A DNA stretch of 36,921 nt. Source: a virus (taxonomy: Duplodnaviria > Heunggongvirae > Uroviricota > Caudoviricetes). Below are positions 23,010 to 35,615 of this stretch, piece after piece. Within the stretch, counting starts at the first letter, position 1; every line of letters starts with the position of its first letter. Position numbers and translations under genes: made by a program. The DNA is taken from IMG/VR virus record IMGVR_UViG_2531839667_000014, positions 1 through 36,921 of that record; one strand, written 5' to 3'. The notes under the pieces are model-generated. The model did not search any database, had not been told where the DNA came from, and saw nothing but the letters and a program-made list of their open reading frames with translations.

Positions 23010-23084
<75 letters not shown>

Positions 23085-23087
23085 ATA

Positions 23088-23163
<76 letters not shown>

Positions 23164-23351: not shown

Positions 23352-23377
23352 ATAAAAAACCCGCTCGGAGGCGGGCT
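23352..23377 (-). terminator. rho-independent terminator downstream of the late promoter (tR'-like)
   Basis: Minus-strand AGCCCGCC-tccga-GCGGGTT followed by TTTTTAT. Confidence 0.65.
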
Positions 23378-23456: not shown

Positions 23457-24278
23457 CTATCGCGTTACCCTCTTTAACTGCCGCTCCGCCCATGTCTCTT
23501 CAATGTCAAACCGAACCACCAACGTATCGTAAAAGCGTTTCACTGATTTTTTCCACGTATCAAGCGTGATAGCACTCGTCACTTTACATATGGCATTAAA
23601 TGCCTCCGTTGATGGCAGTCTTTCATAGCCCCGACCACCACAACGCTGGCAGTTCCTGATTACAGGCATACCCCGTTTTTCCGACTCTTCACGATGAATG
23701 GCAACACCACGCCCACGGCAGTCTTTACAGGCAGTGGAAATCTCCCCCTTCCCTTTACATTCAGGACAGGAAACTTTCACCACCTCCCGGATTTTTTTCC
23801 ATTCTTCCCAGTAAGACGGATACACACCCTTCGTACACTTTGCCCATACTGGCGGCTTGCCATCCGGATACTGGACCTTGTTTGTAAAAACTTCGCTTTC
23901 AATAAATTTTTCCCCATGGCAACAAGGGCACTGCTTTTTACTCGCTGCGCTGCGGGCATAATCCTCAAAAGCATACGAAGCCATAATGCGCATCACTGCC
24001 GGTTTTATTTCTGCCGGAAGTTTTCTTAACGCCGCCACGCGATCGCACTGACTTAATGCATAATCTGCCAGTAATTCTGTTGCCCGCGCCCTGTCATTCA
24101 TACTAATGCCCATTTTCCCCAGGAACGCAGAAAATCCCATCTCAGCACGGTTTTGTGTCATACCCTGCGCAGCCATCACATCAGTGATACTCAGCGTATC
24201 TTTTGACGTCGAGACGGATGCATCAGTCAGGCCAGGCGATTTTGGGGAGTAGTATTTCGGTAAATCTTCCAGCTTCAT
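23457..24278 (-). CDS. Q: late antiterminator Q-like protein (zinc-binding)
   Basis: 273 aa with several CxxC pairs; located between rusA and the PR'-like promoter; ATGA overlap with rusA. Confidence 0.65.
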   Translation of the reverse strand: MKLEDLPKYYSPKSPGLTDASVSTSKDTLSITDVMAAQGMTQNRAEMGFSAFLGKMGISMNDRARATELLADYALSQCDRVAALRKLPAEIKPAVMRIMASYAFEDYARSAASKKQCPCCHGEKFIESEVFTNKVQYPDGKPPVWAKCTKGVYPSYWEEWKKIREVVKVSCPECKGKGEISTACKDCRGRGVAIHREESEKRGMPVIRNCQRCGGRGYERLPSTEAFNAICKVTSAITLDTWKKSVKRFYDTLVVRFDIEETWAERQLKRVTR

Positions 24279-24655
24279 TTATTGACCTGCCCGTCATGCA
24301 TTATTTCGTAAATTTTCACGCCCAGTCGACCACCAGGAACGAGCTGACCGCGCACTATATTGATTTCGTCAAACTGCTCATCGTCGATAAGCAGTCCTGC
24401 ATGTGTCAGTGCATCCAGTGGTGCCTTCAGGATATTGTCCAGGTCGCGGCAGCGCTTATCCGGTGGCTCTGCAATAATCCTGATTGCCAACCTACCGGAC
24501 AGATTTAATTTCAGTCGCTGCTGGCGAACAATAAGCGCCACATCCCGGCGATAACGCTCACCGGCTTTTGATACAAAATATACGCCACCACGACGGCGCC
24601 AGTAGGTGTTCACCGACGGCGGGTAAGGCAAAACAAATTCTATGCGCTCAGTCAT
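24275..24655 (-). CDS. rusA: Holliday junction resolvase RusA
   Basis: 126 aa; N-terminal ...EFVLPYPPSVNTYWRRRGG... and acidic catalytic residues typical of RusA; nin-region position. Confidence 0.85.
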   Translation of the reverse strand: MTERIEFVLPYPPSVNTYWRRRGGVYFVSKAGERYRRDVALIVRQQRLKLNLSGRLAIRIIAEPPDKRCRDLDNILKAPLDALTHAGLLIDDEQFDEINIVRGQLVPGGRLGVKIYEIMHDGQVNK

Positions 24656-25711
24656 TTATGCTTTCCACTTCAGGACACCCGAATTTCTCGCGTGCATTAA
24701 AAAACGAATCAGCAACAACAGCTGGCTGCCGTGTTTTTCTTCAAAATCTTTTACCCCGGCGTGCAGTTCGTTATGACATTTACGGCACAGCGGAATAACA
24801 AACAAATCATCAGCCTTTGTTCCCATCCCTCCCAGTCCATGACCAATGATGTGATGCGGATCATCTGCCTGATTACCGCACGTCATGCATTTCTGCGTTT
24901 TTACCCAGCGCGTGTATACAGGCATCTCTTCCCGTTGTGGTTTCTGGCGCTGGAGATACTGAGCCGGTGACTCCGGATCAACGGCAATGCTGACCACCGT
25001 CTTTTCCTGTGGCGGATTTTGCTGGTGGGCGTGAGGCAGCGGCGCAAGATTTTTTGTGCGCTGCTTCAGTATGCTGGTGGCGGTCTGCTCTCCCGGTACG
25101 ATGTCGCTTTCACGGTACACTGAGCGGATTTTTTCCGCACGCCCCCCCAGCGAACGACGTAATACCGCTTCCGGTAGCGCGTCCGCCACCTGATTGCGGA
25201 CCGCCCACCAGGATAATTCAGCCAGAGATAACTCCCGTTCCTGTGTACCGCTTATTGCGTGGCGGATGACGCCAATCATCCAGGCTGCCAGATTTTGATG
25301 AGCAAGTTGCCCGAGTGATTCGGATGTCTGGTCACGCAGCAGGTTGTCGCAGTGCCAGCACAACACTATTGCGCCGGTACCATAACGGTGAATGACGGTT
25401 TCGCTGTGATGATAATCGCCGTGTGGCCACTGGCAGGATTTAATATGGCGCAACAGCCAGTCAGACAATGCACCAGCACCACCAGCAGCACGAATCACCC
25501 GTGCGTTACTGAAAAACGGCAGCAATGTTTTGTCTTCCACCAGCGGCTGGCGAACGGCAGGAACGACCCCGGACGGCAGATTACGCATGCTTTTCGGTTC
25601 CGGCTCCACCAGCACTCGAGGATTGTGAAATACCTGCATGGATTCACGGCCCGGCTTAACGATCACCAGCCCGAGTTCCGGTACCAGAACAGGTCGAAGT
25701 AATACCCGCAC
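24656..25711 (-). CDS. DUF968-family prophage protein (YdfU-like) with C-terminal HNH-like motif
   Basis: 351 aa; C-terminal ...CMTCGNQADDPHHIIGHGLGGMGTKADDLFVIPLCRKCHNELH... has HNH-type Cys/His spacing; an internal start (MQVFHNPR) is possible. Confidence 0.65.
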   Translation of the reverse strand: MRVLLRPVLVPELGLVIVKPGRESMQVFHNPRVLVEPEPKSMRNLPSGVVPAVRQPLVEDKTLLPFFSNARVIRAAGGAGALSDWLLRHIKSCQWPHGDYHHSETVIHRYGTGAIVLCWHCDNLLRDQTSESLGQLAHQNLAAWMIGVIRHAISGTQERELSLAELSWWAVRNQVADALPEAVLRRSLGGRAEKIRSVYRESDIVPGEQTATSILKQRTKNLAPLPHAHQQNPPQEKTVVSIAVDPESPAQYLQRQKPQREEMPVYTRWVKTQKCMTCGNQADDPHHIIGHGLGGMGTKADDLFVIPLCRKCHNELHAGVKDFEEKHGSQLLLLIRFLMHARNSGVLKWKA

Positions 25712-25712
25712 G

Positions 25713-25991
25713 TTACCTCCAGATCCGTTGCTGGAATGTGCGGGACGGACGCGGTGGGCGTTCGGAATAAGGGAGTCTGACGTAGATTATCCAGAGACGA
25801 TAATCGAGGCTGAGGGCTTTCCTAAACTCATACCCACGTCTGCGGTAGTTATGAATCAGCCATTCGGCCTGTTCTTCAGTGCAGGGGTCATGCTGGTACC
25901 AGTCATATTTGAATGCGTGAGGGCGCCGCCCGTGCCCGCTGGCAAAGACGGCTGAATTATCAGAATTGTTAATTTTCTTGTAATGCACCAC
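25713..25991 (-). CDS. hypothetical prophage protein
   Basis: 92-aa ORF abutting the DUF968 gene on the same strand; no family recognised. Confidence 0.4.
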   Translation of the reverse strand: MVHYKKINNSDNSAVFASGHGRRPHAFKYDWYQHDPCTEEQAEWLIHNYRRRGYEFRKALSLDYRLWIIYVRLPYSERPPRPSRTFQQRIWR

Positions 25992-26467: not shown

Positions 26468-26494
26468 GAAAAACAAAACCCGCCGAAGCGGGTT
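26468..26494 (-). terminator. rho-independent terminator at the 3' end of the hok transcript
   Basis: Minus-strand AACCCGC-ttcg-GCGGGTT followed by TTGTTTTTC. Confidence 0.6.
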
Positions 26495-26562: not shown

Positions 26563-26718
26563 TTACTCCTCAGGTTCGTAAGCTGTGAAGACAGCGACCT
26601 CCGTCTGTCCGGTTCGGATTCGTACCTCGCAGAGGTCTTTCCTCGTTACCAGTGCCGTCACAATGACGGTTAAACAGATGACGATCAGGGCGATTAGCAT
26701 CGCCTTTTGCTGCTTCAT
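26563..26718 (-). CDS. hok: Hok-family type I toxin (HokD/RelF-like)
   Basis: 51 aa MKQQKAMLIALIVICLTVIVTALVTRKDLCEVRIRTGQTEVAVFTAYEPEE; single TM helix; AAGGAG RBS; the track ORF is extended in frame by 19 codons. Confidence 0.9.
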   Translation of the reverse strand: MKQQKAMLIALIVICLTVIVTALVTRKDLCEVRIRTGQTEVAVFTAYEPEE

Positions 26719-27007
26719 AGCCTGCTTCTCCTTGCCTTTCGGCACGTAAGAGGCTAACCTACGTGTGCAAGTCATAGATATGGCCTCAGATTAATGTTAA
26801 GCGTCTTGCAGGACGCGTAATGTTAACTGGGGCTTTCTCTGCCTGCCTTACAGTGGCATGCCCGAGGCAGACAGCCTCAAGCACCCGCAGCAATTCTACT
26901 TAACTATCTTTCTCCCGCAAATCGTTTTTATCCCCAGCGGCAAATCGAATACACAACCAGTGCTACCGCCATTGCAATTCCTACTGTTGTGAATGCCTCA
27001 GGCCAGG

Positions 27008-27700
27008 TCATCGTAAAACATCCTCCACGCCTATCAACCCGTTCCGCTCCAGATAGCCCATCGCATTATCTGGCAATTTGCAGTCCGGTTTCGATTTCTT
27101 CAGTTGGCTGACTAATTGCTTCACCAGCATTGTCAATTCGATAACCTGTTTGCCTGATGTTCGCTCACTACAGCTTATCCAATCATCCGGAGTTGCCGGG
27201 GAGCTGGTTGACGAATTCTTATTTTCCCGAAAGTTTCCGGCCTGAAACATAGCGGCGCGGTGACACCAGATAATCCAGCCAATCGCCATATCCCATGCCA
27301 TGTATTCGCTACCGCCATTTTTTGCCCTGCGGCGATCAACAGAATCCCCGAAATGCTTCTCCATAAATAACTCATAGGCAGCCCGTTCATCCGGCACCAC
27401 CAGCATTGGCGGCGTGGCGTATAGCTTACGGGTCTGAACACCTGCCCCCTGGCATTTCTCTTCCTCAACAAATCTTTCGAAAGCATATTCCCCGCAATCT
27501 TCCCATTCTCCCCATTCATCATATTCTGCATCCCACTGGCGATACTGATATGCCACTGGCTCTGCTTCCAGCGATGCCAGAGCAATACGAAACACATTGG
27601 CAAGCAGGCTGTTTGAAGATTGGTTATCGTGCGCCGAATCGCTCAGAAAACCAGTGATGAATGATTTAATCTCCGCGCTTTCTCTGGTAATAGTGGTCAT
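27008..27700 (-). CDS. hypothetical protein, acidic Trp-rich N-half and basic C-terminus
   Basis: 230-aa ORF tightly packed with neighbours; no recognisable family. Confidence 0.5.
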   Translation of the reverse strand: MTTITRESAEIKSFITGFLSDSAHDNQSSNSLLANVFRIALASLEAEPVAYQYRQWDAEYDEWGEWEDCGEYAFERFVEEEKCQGAGVQTRKLYATPPMLVVPDERAAYELFMEKHFGDSVDRRRAKNGGSEYMAWDMAIGWIIWCHRAAMFQAGNFRENKNSSTSSPATPDDWISCSERTSGKQVIELTMLVKQLVSQLKKSKPDCKLPDNAMGYLERNGLIGVEDVLR

Positions 27701-33143: not shown

Positions 33144-35615
33144 ATGAGTAAAGTCTTTATTTGCGCCGCCATTCCGGACGAACAGGCAACAGCAGAAGGC
33201 GCCAAACCTGTGGCCACTGCCATTGAAGCAGGCGACGAACGCCGGGCAAGAGCCAAATTTAGCTGGTTATTTCTGGAACAATACCCGGAAGCTCAGGACT
33301 GTGCTTATAAATTTCTTGTCTGCGAGGATAAACCCGGCATGGCCCGCCCTGCTCTCGATTCCTGGGATTCCGAATATATGCAGGAAAACCGCTGGAATGA
33401 GGAGTCGGCTTCCTTTGTTCCGGTCGACCCTGAACCGGATACAGAAACTGTTAACTTTAATCAGTTATCTGAAGACAAGCGGGCTGCTGTCCTTGTCAGG
33501 TTCGGTACACATGAAAACATCACCGTGGATATGGTCATCAATGCAAGCGGGCTTCTCGGCGATGACGAGATGACGACTTTTGATGGACACCTCACTGAAG
33601 CAATTATCAGGACTAAAGAAATTAACGCCATGTATCCTGAGCGTCAGACTGAGTACATCAACGATGCCAGACGTGATTTAAAACCAACAGCCAAATGGCC
33701 CGACGTTCAGGCGTATTTTCTCGAACGTAAAAAACGCATGGAAAAGGAGCGCAAAGAAGGTGGAGCATATAATTCCGTCGTCGATCTTGCCCGCGCCAGA
33801 GTCAACCGGCAAGGCACTGAAAACTCTGCAGGAAAAACTGACTCCGTAACTGCTGTCGTTCGTCGCGAATACAGGCAGACATGGAAAACACTGGATGAAG
33901 AACTGGCCTACGCTTTCTGGCCTGGTGATATTGATGCCGGAAACATTGACGGCAGCATCCATCGCTGGGCAAAAAATGAAGTTATCGACAAAGATCGCGA
34001 AGACTGGAAGCGTATTTCCGCATTAATGCGCAAACAACCTGATGCCGTTCGCTACGACCGTCAGACTATTTTTGGCCTTGTCCGTGAGCGTCCGATCGAC
34101 ATTCACAAAGATCCCGTGGCGCTGAACAAATACATCACTGAATACCTGGCGACAAAGGGCGTGTTTGAGGATGAAGAAACAGACCAGAGCACTGCTGATA
34201 TTCTCCAGCCGTCAGCAGCACAAACTGATGCAGTGGAAACTGAAGTATCTGATACCCAAAAAAATGAAAGCGCGCTGGAAACTGAACCATCTGTAGAGCG
34301 TGAAGGACCGTTCTACTTCCTCTTCACCGATAAGGATGGCGAAAAATATGGTCGTGCAAACAAACTTTCTGGTCTGAATAAGGCGCTGGCTGCCGGGGCT
34401 ACTGAAATCACGAAAGAAGAATATTTTGCCCGTAAAAACGGCACGTACTCAGGTTCACAACAAAATACTGGTGCATCTGACACGACCGCACAACCAGAGC
34501 CGGTAAAAGTTACCGCTGACGAAGTAAACAAAATTATGCAGGCAGCCAATATCAGCCAGCCTGACGCCGATAAGTTGCTTGCTGCCTCTCGCGGAGAATT
34601 TGTTGCAGGGATTAGCGACCCGAATGATCCGAAATGGGTGAAGGGGATTGAAACCCGCGATTCTGTAAACCAGAACCAGCAAGAATCGGAACAGAACGAC
34701 CAGAAAGCGGAACAAAACAGCCCAAATGCGCAACAAAACGAGCCAGAAACGAAACAATCCAAACCAGTAACGCAACAGGAACCTGAAAAAGTCTGCACCG
34801 CCTGCGGTCAGAGCGGTGGCGGCAACTGCCCTGATTGTGGCGCGGTGATGGGCGACGCAACATACCAGGAAACATTCGATGACGAGAATCAGGTTGAAGT
34901 TCAGGAAGACGATTCGGAGAAAATGGAAGGCGCTGAACATCCACACAAGGAGAATGCTGGCAGCGATCAGGATCACGCCAGCGATAGTGAAACTGGCGAG
35001 ACGGCAGATCCCTTAATTGCGGTGAACGGTCATCACGTTATCACATCCACCAACAGAGCGGGGATTCATCTGATGATCGACCTTGAAACCATGGGAAAAA
35101 ATCCTGATGCCCCGATTATCGCAATAGGTGCAATATTTTTCGATCCGCAAACCGGAGATATGGGGCCGGAATTTAGCAAGACCATCGATCTGGATACTGC
35201 TGGCGGAGTCATTGATCGTGACGTCATTAAATGGTGGCTTAAGCAATCACGTGAGACGCAATCTGCCATTCTGACCGATGAAATTCCGTTAGATGATGCA
35301 CTACTGCAATTGCGGGAATTTATAGATGAAAACTCCGGTGAATTTTTTGTTCAGGTCTGGGGAAATGGAGCCAACTTCGACAACGTGATTTTACGCCGTT
35401 CATACGAACGACAGGGTATCCCCTGCCCGTGGCGCTACTGCAACGATCGCGATGTACGCACAATCGTTGAGCTGGGGAAAGCTATAGACTTCGATGCCAG
35501 AACGGCTATCCCATTCGAAGGTGAGCGCCACAATGCACTTGATGACGCCCGTTACCAGGCAAAATACGTTTCAGCTATCTGGCAAAAACTGATCCCGAAT
35601 CAGGCTGATTTTTAA
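33144..35615 (+). CDS. large multidomain protein: RecE-like N-terminal/central regions, zinc ribbon, C-terminal DEDDh 3'-5' exonuclease domain
   Basis: 823 aa; C-terminal motifs DLET, NGANFD and HNALDDA (DnaQ-like DEDDh); CxxC-x8-CxxC (CTACGQSGGGNCPDCG); Q/N/E-rich low-complexity linker; central segment ...LLAASRGEFVAGISDPNDPKWVKGIETRD... resembles Rac RecE from memory. Confidence 0.8.
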   Translation: MSKVFICAAIPDEQATAEGAKPVATAIEAGDERRARAKFSWLFLEQYPEAQDCAYKFLVCEDKPGMARPALDSWDSEYMQENRWNEESASFVPVDPEPDTETVNFNQLSEDKRAAVLVRFGTHENITVDMVINASGLLGDDEMTTFDGHLTEAIIRTKEINAMYPERQTEYINDARRDLKPTAKWPDVQAYFLERKKRMEKERKEGGAYNSVVDLARARVNRQGTENSAGKTDSVTAVVRREYRQTWKTLDEELAYAFWPGDIDAGNIDGSIHRWAKNEVIDKDREDWKRISALMRKQPDAVRYDRQTIFGLVRERPIDIHKDPVALNKYITEYLATKGVFEDEETDQSTADILQPSAAQTDAVETEVSDTQKNESALETEPSVEREGPFYFLFTDKDGEKYGRANKLSGLNKALAAGATEITKEEYFARKNGTYSGSQQNTGASDTTAQPEPVKVTADEVNKIMQAANISQPDADKLLAASRGEFVAGISDPNDPKWVKGIETRDSVNQNQQESEQNDQKAEQNSPNAQQNEPETKQSKPVTQQEPEKVCTACGQSGGGNCPDCGAVMGDATYQETFDDENQVEVQEDDSEKMEGAEHPHKENAGSDQDHASDSETGETADPLIAVNGHHVITSTNRAGIHLMIDLETMGKNPDAPIIAIGAIFFDPQTGDMGPEFSKTIDLDTAGGVIDRDVIKWWLKQSRETQSAILTDEIPLDDALLQLREFIDENSGEFFVQVWGNGANFDNVILRRSYERQGIPCPWRYCNDRDVRTIVELGKAIDFDARTAIPFEGERHNALDDARYQAKYVSAIWQKLIPNQADF

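Follow-up and report, generated by a model that had tools for sequence, protein, structure and literature searches.

The stretch of DNA analysed here (the window: 36,921 nucleotides of IMG/VR virus record IMGVR_UViG_2531839667_000014) carries a complete lambdoid prophage. One gene of its early-right region, a ydfU-type member of the DUF968 family, codes for a protein in which a predicted C-terminal HNH nuclease domain is tethered to a globular N-terminal module. On balance the evidence tips towards a two-module phage DNA endonuclease that nicks branched, recombination or replication intermediates alongside RusA, the resolvase encoded immediately downstream. Family membership, predicted fold, conservation of the active site, the two-module architecture and the linkage to resolvase genes were established in this analysis. 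Few E. coli prophage genes of unknown function are as widespread as ydfU, which is part of the K-12 'y-ome'.

The ydfU gene and its family

The ydfU open reading frame (ORF) is a genuine gene. It is listed at 24656-25711 on the minus strand with a GTG start and 351 codons (351 amino acids), and RefSeq lists the same coding sequence (CDS), as WP_001265123.1 with the name 'DUF968 domain-containing protein', in NZ_CP090611.1, an E. coli chromosome with 100% identity. An earlier reading of the sequence by a model (the original prediction) had given these coordinates exactly and had left out the strand. The start codon is backed by the sequence GGAGG (25720-25716), four nucleotides ahead of it. The TAA codon of a 92-residue ORF upstream (25715-25713) lies between GGAGG and the GTG, ending one nucleotide before the latter, and the ydfU stop codon abuts the ATG of rusA (TAAATG). 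The position of the upstream TAA and the abutting stop and start codons indicate that ydfU is translationally coupled on both sides, to the 92-residue ORF and to rusA. Plus-strand ORFs overlapping ydfU (e.g. 25352-25702) were set aside as lacking support.

The Pfam model DUF968 (PF06147) matched residues 160-343 with E=1.1e-63 (214.8 bits against a cut-off of 27.8) over positions 1-169 of its 171, and HNHc_6 (PF16784) matched the HNH part, at positions 119-184 of its 204 only (E=1.6e-7; 31.6 bits against a cut-off of 26.6). PHROG 96, 'HNH endonuclease', extended over residues 1-348 of the protein (E=2.7e-163). The assignment to a DUF968-type protein in the original prediction is borne out by the Pfam score. 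A representative-cluster search at 50% identity returned 2169 representative homologues at E<=1e-3; together with the scores above, this number argues that the Cys/His motif near the C-terminus is not a product of chance. NCBIfam held no model matching YdfU, and RecA_dep_nuc (PF16786), the family of P1 Ref, was absent among the Pfam matches at E<=0.01.

A first homologue search had yielded E. coli sequences of >90% identity only; the diversity used here comes from the representative-cluster search, from which 31 diverse full-length homologues with 25-49% identity were aligned (from Klebsiella/Raoultella, Ewingella, Gilliamella, Vibrio and Cronobacter). Of 5426 complete E. coli genomes, 4545 (84%) carry a DNA match to ydfU, at up to nine places per genome, and 1950 have one that covers at least 80% of the gene. 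Stx2a-converting and further Escherichia phages also match, with the gene annotated there as ydfU.

The predicted C-terminal HNH domain

YdfU is predicted to end in a nuclease domain of the HNH (His-Me finger) type, with a conserved lead-in of the form VDPExP...RPK257...YxxWVK. Its core reads KC275MTC278GNQADDPH286H287IIGHGLGG...C309RKC312H313NELH317, and the Cys/His residues of the region are C275, C278, H286, H287, H291, C309, C312, H313 and H317. The peptide quoted in the original prediction is indeed present, but the motif spans residues 275-317 and thus belongs to the last ~77 residues and not to the last 60, and the region ahead of it measures ~270 residues instead of the proposed ~290.

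An AlphaFold2 model of the full-length protein, built on the homologue alignment, reached a mean predicted local distance difference test score (pLDDT) of 88.3. It shows strands 284-287 and 305-308 followed by a helix (310-318), a ββα unit as in the ββα-metal fold of the His-Me finger superfamily. H286-H287 lie within β1 and H313xxxH317 on the helix, as is characteristic of the general base and the metal ligands in this superfamily. According to the model, C275xxC278 and C309xxC312 form a putative zinc site holding the ββα unit, H286-H287 are the predicted general base, D302 takes the 'N' position and H313xxxH317 presumably provide the ligands of the catalytic divalent metal. The predicted fold and the conserved catalytic residues support the earlier reading of the HNH-like spacing as a nuclease domain. 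A zinc ribbon only, which would have spoken against that reading, is not what structure prediction gave, the ββα unit carrying conserved HH and HxxxH.

H287 is at least 90% conserved in the YdfU family, and in an alignment of YdfU, YbcO, Ref, Gp16 and λ NinG both H287 and C309 are invariant. The full CxxC-HH-CxxC/H-HxxxH pattern was found in 22 of about 34 full-length representatives; a further eight, mostly from Vibrio, keep HH and HxxxH and have lost the Cys4 zinc site, and four have lost the catalytic His (H313xxxH317 is kept in 30 of the ~34). That the catalytic residues outlast a decayed zinc site argues for selection on catalysis and not on the structure of a zinc finger. In P0173, P0186, P0208, P0213, P0229, P0235, P0240 and P0254 (mostly Vibrio, metagenomes) three of the four HNH zinc cysteines are gone with HH and HxxxH kept, and this P0173-type subfamily probably represents a zinc-less, still catalytic variant.

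Profile-to-sequence comparison related the domain to Gp16 of Staphylococcus phage PhiNM1 (94.5% probability, E=8e-8), to YbcO (82%, E=1e-5) and to P1 Ref (76%, E=2.4e-5, 56 columns), and BLASTP aligned YdfU with Gp16 at 39% identity over 59 residues (E=2e-8). Further likenesses of the modelled domain, ranking lower, are McrA and the HNH domains of GVE2 and Cas9. A Foldseek search of the PDB gave no significant match, the best hits of a single-protein HMMER search of PDB sequences were YbcO (E=0.37) and McrA (E=0.95), and full-length and N-domain profiles found no match among PDB sequences; at the sequence level the relationship is therefore a remote one.

The N-terminal module and the linker

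In the AlphaFold2 model residues 1-220 form a module of their own, in which a small β unit and helices are combined with a ββα zinc unit and a helical bundle. Modelled alone, residues 1-235 fold as one globular unit (pLDDT 89.1, predicted template modelling score 0.78). PHROG 11007 ('unknown function') covers residues 2-134; with the threshold relaxed to E<=10, Pfam still gave no match to residues 1-160. A second Cys/His motif, C93...[H/C]101...C118-W-H-[C/H]121-D122-N123, lies within this module. All aligned homologues have C93 and C118, either His or Cys occupies positions 101 and 121 throughout, and conservation of W119 and D122 reaches at least 90%; the family consensus is LCWHHDN. Exchange of His and Cys at positions 101 and 121 is typical of zinc ligands and thus points to a structural zinc site. 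A β-hairpin (strands 105-110 and 113-118) and the helix after it (119-125) carry the motif; this is the topology of a zinc-finger HNH, but neither HH nor HxxxH is present. From the model we therefore predict, within the N-module, an HNH-like (treble-clef) zinc ββα unit that is catalytically dead.

Comparison of the N-terminal profile (84-160) with the C-terminal profile (262-346) gave the expected register at weak scores (E=0.05, probability 1%). Weak matches in a consistent register were likewise obtained for the N-terminal profile with Ref (E=0.0035) and with the packaging HNH of the same prophage (E=0.037), and for a second BLASTP high-scoring segment pair with Gp16 (E=0.089). Homology of the two HNH-like units would thus be argued mainly from predicted structure.

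The modules are joined by a flexible linker, beyond which identity to K-12 YdfU changes: it amounts to 85-90% up to residue 240 and to 50-64% thereafter, and nucleotide 748 of the gene (residue ~249) is the end point of several phage DNA matches. Drop and match ends coincide with the linker, which indicates that it is also a mosaic recombination joint between modules. This architecture, with the predicted dead unit in a globular N-module and the double role of the linker, appears to be new. The HNH module with its VDPExP...RPK lead-in is found behind other N-termini as well. Some apparent fusions were rejected as real architectures, the partner domains being truncated: the YdfU N-terminus joined to truncated tail-fibre, tail-tip J, portal or capsid domains, and the HNH end joined to partial Dam or MT-A70. 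These chimeric ORFs (P0147, P0180, P0182, P0230, P0127, P0160, P0191, P0198) most likely arose by in-frame deletion in decaying prophages. The combination LexA_DNA_bind+DUF968 (P0203) may be a real architecture.

Linkage to Holliday-junction resolvases

The context of ydfU was examined for eleven diverse homologues including the window, with unannotated neighbours typed by PHROGs. The downstream gene is rusA in the window and at loci L005, L007/8 and L010/11, a VRR-NUC resolvase (PHROG 5702) in a Vibrio prophage (L006, 6001-7499) and a DUF1064-type 'Holliday junction resolvase' (PHROG 190) at L012 (81-1450); the latter type also follows at L014 (3544-5095), there after one 62-residue ORF. Seven of nine catalytically intact homologues accordingly have a resolvase directly downstream (at L014 after the small ORF), drawn from three unrelated families, and two have no adjacent resolvase. 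RusA has been replaced by unrelated predicted resolvases with the adjacency preserved, which is a case of non-orthologous displacement. An adjacency that outlasts such replacement is good evidence for a functional link to junction processing.

The remaining two homologues are catalytically dead variants on P1-like elements of ~90 kb; an Lpa-like activator gene follows downstream, and no resolvase gene is adjacent. These relatives, P0212 (L013:5001-6044) and P0207 (L004:376-1365), and also P0228, have lost HH and HxxxH, but all four cysteines of the zinc site are still there, as are the N-module, D302 and P307. The contigs L013 and L004 measure ~90-94 kb and come from E. coli and Cronobacter. 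A C1 repressor of the P7/P1 type and the Lpa-like late activator are encoded next to the gene, so that a P1-like phage-plasmid is the probable carrier. A DUF4406 gene was observed directly upstream of ydfU at L009 (5717-6007) and L015 (1805-2116) and ~1.7 kb upstream at L014 (1410-1817); it is absent from the window.

Prophage context in the window

Early-right and late genes of the prophage are on the minus strand (Table 1). The ydfU slot is the nin-type end of the delayed-early operon, the end of which is marked by the Q antiterminator gene, and corresponds to the position of rap/ninG in λ and of ybcO-rusA in DLP12. Both the RusA neighbour and the placement in the nin region, as originally predicted, are confirmed by the genes that follow ydfU. 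Gene order past Q is tRNA-Thr, tRNA-Gly, holin and lysozyme, and the hairpin just ahead of the tRNA genes may be the equivalent of tR'. The Antiterm model matched Q in two stretches, and around residues 171-218 Q also has a DnaJ-type CXXCXGXG zinc-finger repeat, whose score narrowly misses the cut-off (PF00684, E=1e-7). A second HNH endonuclease, unrelated to YdfU, directly precedes the P27-type small terminase gene, which is an HK97 gp74-like packaging arrangement. In the early-left operon an 823-residue 'exonuclease' (33144-35615, plus strand) ends in an Rv2179c-like/DnaQ-type 3'-5' exonuclease domain (PF16473, E=6e-65). No annealing protein of the Redβ, RecT or Erf type was noticed among the ORFs scanned.

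Table 1 Features of the ydfU gene and its surroundings (positions in the window)
Feature	Position	Strand	Evidence
ydfU-type CDS, DUF968 family member	24656..25711	-	ORF list, Pfam, PHROG, identical RefSeq CDS, K-12 YdfU identity
Shine-Dalgarno GGAGG, four nucleotides 5' of the ydfU GTG	25716..25720	-	direct sequence reading
N-terminal globular module, residues 1-220	25052..25711	-	AlphaFold2 model, PHROG 11007
Second Cys/His motif, residues 93-125	25337..25435	-	
Flexible linker, residues ~221-248	24968..25051	-	pLDDT <50 for residues 229-241
Predicted C-terminal HNH (His-Me finger) nuclease domain, residues ~249-345	24677..24967	-	
Core catalytic and zinc motif (predicted), residues 275-317	24761..24889	-	alignment, residue reading
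rusA, Holliday-junction resolvase, starts right after the ydfU stop	24275..24655	-	PF05866 E=1.1e-15; PHROG 34 E=3e-55
Q late-gene antiterminator, 273 residues, 4-nucleotide overlap with the rusA stop	23457..24278	-	PF03589 E=1.9e-50
Terminator-like hairpin just ahead of the tRNA genes	23358-23377	-	
tRNA-Thr(TGT) and tRNA-Gly(TCC), between Q and the lysis genes	23010-23163	-	
Conserved ORF of 92 residues, of unknown function, 5' of ydfU in the same operon and coupled to it	25713..25991	-	PHROG 1212 E=4e-37; no Pfam match; RefSeq hypothetical
Terminator-like hairpin after hok, strong, AACCCGC-TTCG-GCGGGTT and T-run	26477-26494	-	
Hok/Gef type I toxin ORF 5' of ydfU, hokD in the matching RefSeq record	26563-26775	-	PF01848 E=3e-23
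Conserved ORF of 230 residues, of unknown function, further 5' in the ydfU operon	27008-27700	-	no Pfam or PADLOC match
HNH endonuclease directly 5' of the small terminase gene	21148-21498	-	PF01844 E=2e-16
P27-type small terminase	20517-20999		

Proposed function and alternatives

The two-module design and the nearest relatives (Ref, Gp16 and Rap) suggest nicking of branched or RecA-bound DNA; we infer nuclease activity, substrate and any RecA dependence of YdfU, the last by analogy. In the C-terminal module (residues ~250-345), a zinc-stabilised HNH with the ββα unit held by Cys4, H287 (together with H286) would serve as the base and H313 and H317 would bind the metal. The N-module (1-220), on its disordered tether of ~25 residues, would most likely target this domain to a DNA structure or a partner protein, much as P1 Ref and PhiNM1 Gp16 have their HNH domains directed by the N-terminal part of the protein. 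YdfU and RusA would be co-expressed from the delayed-early (nin-type) operon, just before Q and the activation of late genes, and in lytic growth YdfU would nick D-loops, forks and RecA-bound DNA. Such nicks could create or process junctions, which the co-translated resolvase would then resolve. Recombination-dependent replication would thereby be promoted and unbranched DNA left for packaging.

Other roles are conceivable for an HNH protein of a phage. A nuclease directed against host or competitor, which damages or condenses host or incoming DNA and so shuts down host replication or excludes other phages, seems unlikely to us: PADLOC-DB, queried with YdfU and two upstream ORFs, returned 0 defence families at E<=0.01, so that a defence system was discarded, and an exclusion gene would be placed where it is expressed in the lysogen, whereas ydfU lies in the delayed-early operon, downstream of the hairpin at 26494-26477 and upstream of Q. 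Moreover, the conserved adjacency to resolvases points to DNA-branch metabolism, and phages of Enterobacterales, Vibrio and Gilliamella retain the family in a single position. We regard it as quite improbable that YdfU is a non-catalytic zinc-finger factor binding DNA or protein, for instance a regulator or an accessory of RusA or RecA without nuclease chemistry. Such a role would be in line with P0207, P0212, P0228 and P0221, which lost the catalytic His and kept the N-module, Cys4, D302 and P307, with the HNH-like unit without catalysis in the N-module itself, and with records that label homologues as transcription regulators or antiterminators (PMC5714182). However, all catalytic residues are kept in the window protein and in 30 of ~34 homologues, eight without the zinc site among them, and the dead variants stand in a different, P1-like context that lacks a resolvase.

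Free-standing phage HNH genes are often mobile, a study in Genome Res 2025 cautions against reading a role from position (PMC12315714), and ydfU is mosaic, its 3' module being exchanged among relatives. A selfish homing-type HNH, that is a free-standing mobile gene that propagates through repair after its product has cut a specific site in phages without it, is nevertheless very improbable, given that homologues only 25-50% identical, from several gammaproteobacterial orders, share with ydfU its orientation and its place at the end of the early-right operon, and given the tight translational coupling on both sides and the absence from YdfU of the usual homing DNA-binding modules (NUMOD, AP2 or similar) in Pfam; the closest relatives Ref, Gp16 and YbcO are not homing enzymes either. 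We give hardly any credence to a packaging-associated HNH of the HK97 gp74 type that assists terminase in cos cleavage. HNH proteins are described as widespread terminase partners (Kala 2014, as cited in PMC4330346) and the prophage has HK97-like head and packaging genes, yet these already include the dedicated PF01844 HNH directly upstream of the small terminase gene, whereas ydfU lies ~3 kb away in the early operon and has homologues in phages whose terminases are of the λ Nu1/GpA type and do not require an HNH.

The two-module endonuclease acting alongside RusA can be taken one step further, to an extension that we put forward as speculation and consider doubtful. YdfU might be a built-in pseudo-dimer of His-Me fingers that arose by ancient internal duplication, with the dead unit recognising a DNA branch or a RecA or RusA partner and the live HNH held on the tether; it would be an obligate single-strand nickase handing nicked D-loops and forks to the co-translated resolvase, in a conserved two-gene cassette with a RusA, VRR-NUC or DUF1064-type partner. 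If this were true, a very common uncharacterised E. coli prophage gene would define a new class of branch- or RecA-directed nickase.

Comparison with known systems

The DUF968 family, the His-Me assignment of YdfU, its RusA and Q neighbours and the recombination hypothesis are already published: Jablonska et al. 2017 named YdfU in His-Me finger 'group 7', noted both neighbours and proposed a role in recombination (PMC5714182). The present study adds the model-based link to Ref, the sequence link to Gp16, the predicted dead HNH-like unit in the N-module, the linker as mosaic joint and the synteny with exchanged resolvases, which are useful leads for a y-ome gene, if unsurprising to a specialist. 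The two-module model, the named catalytic and zinc residues, the relatives Ref and Gp16 with their suggestion of RecA-linked nicking and the resolvase pairing offer a starting point for study.

K-12 YdfU (b1560) of the Qin cryptic prophage is 80% identical to the window protein over 348 residues with one gap, shows the same domain matches and is collinear also in the N-terminal region outside the Pfam model; only the C-terminal third, with 50-64% identity, represents an exchanged HNH module. Both genes occupy the same place beside Q and have hokD upstream, but in Qin ydfU is followed directly by ydfT, the Q homologue, and in the window by rusA. YbcO of DLP12 and phage 82 (DUF1364; PDB 3G27), a predicted nuclease since 2016 (PMC4999995), has 96 residues with neither the N-terminal module nor the linker, differs in its zinc and His pattern and is uncharacterised as well. 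P1 Ref, a RecA-dependent HNH endonuclease (PDB 3PLW), cuts D-loops made by RecA and is directed by its N-terminal segment (PMC4330346). Those N-terminal 76 residues are disordered and basic, whereas the N-module of YdfU is folded, and the ref gene adjoins cre/c8 in P1, whereas ydfU lies with a resolvase gene in the nin region. The link between both proteins rests on the profile similarity given above and on a structural match of the model; like Ref, YdfU might serve as a programmable nicking tool.

The closest experimentally studied relative by sequence is PhiNM1 Gp16 (HNHc_6), which also scores on DUF968 (29.1 bits). Its nickase activity is stimulated by RecA, and replication of the phage DNA depends on the protein (Xu et al. 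2026, PMC12817073). Like YdfU, Gp16 is an early phage protein of two modules with a C-terminal zinc HNH, and a rusA gene is found in the same early region. YdfU shares the HNHc_6-type C-terminal module with the Gram-positive 'Orf-HNH' proteins of the phiETA Orf20 type (Curtis et al. 2014, PMC4118853); these, however, have a NinB/Orf fold at the N-terminus (Curtis et al. 2014; Xu et al. 2026), and the N-module of YdfU is not such a NinB/Orf-like (RAGNYA) domain.

λ Rap (NinG), a branch-specific His-Me nuclease that targets D-loops and junctions (PMC5714182), occupies the same slot in the nin region shortly before Q and belongs to the same superfamily, and its catalytic His and zinc Cys align with those of YdfU. 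YdfU has no match to PF05766, the best BLASTP value between both proteins is E=1.6, their architectures differ, and Rap occurs without RusA, whereas YdfU usually stands with a resolvase. λ Rap is thus a positional analogue only. If YdfU is a RecA- or branch-directed nickase, it would help to explain recombination-dependent replication in those lambdoid phages that do not have Rap.
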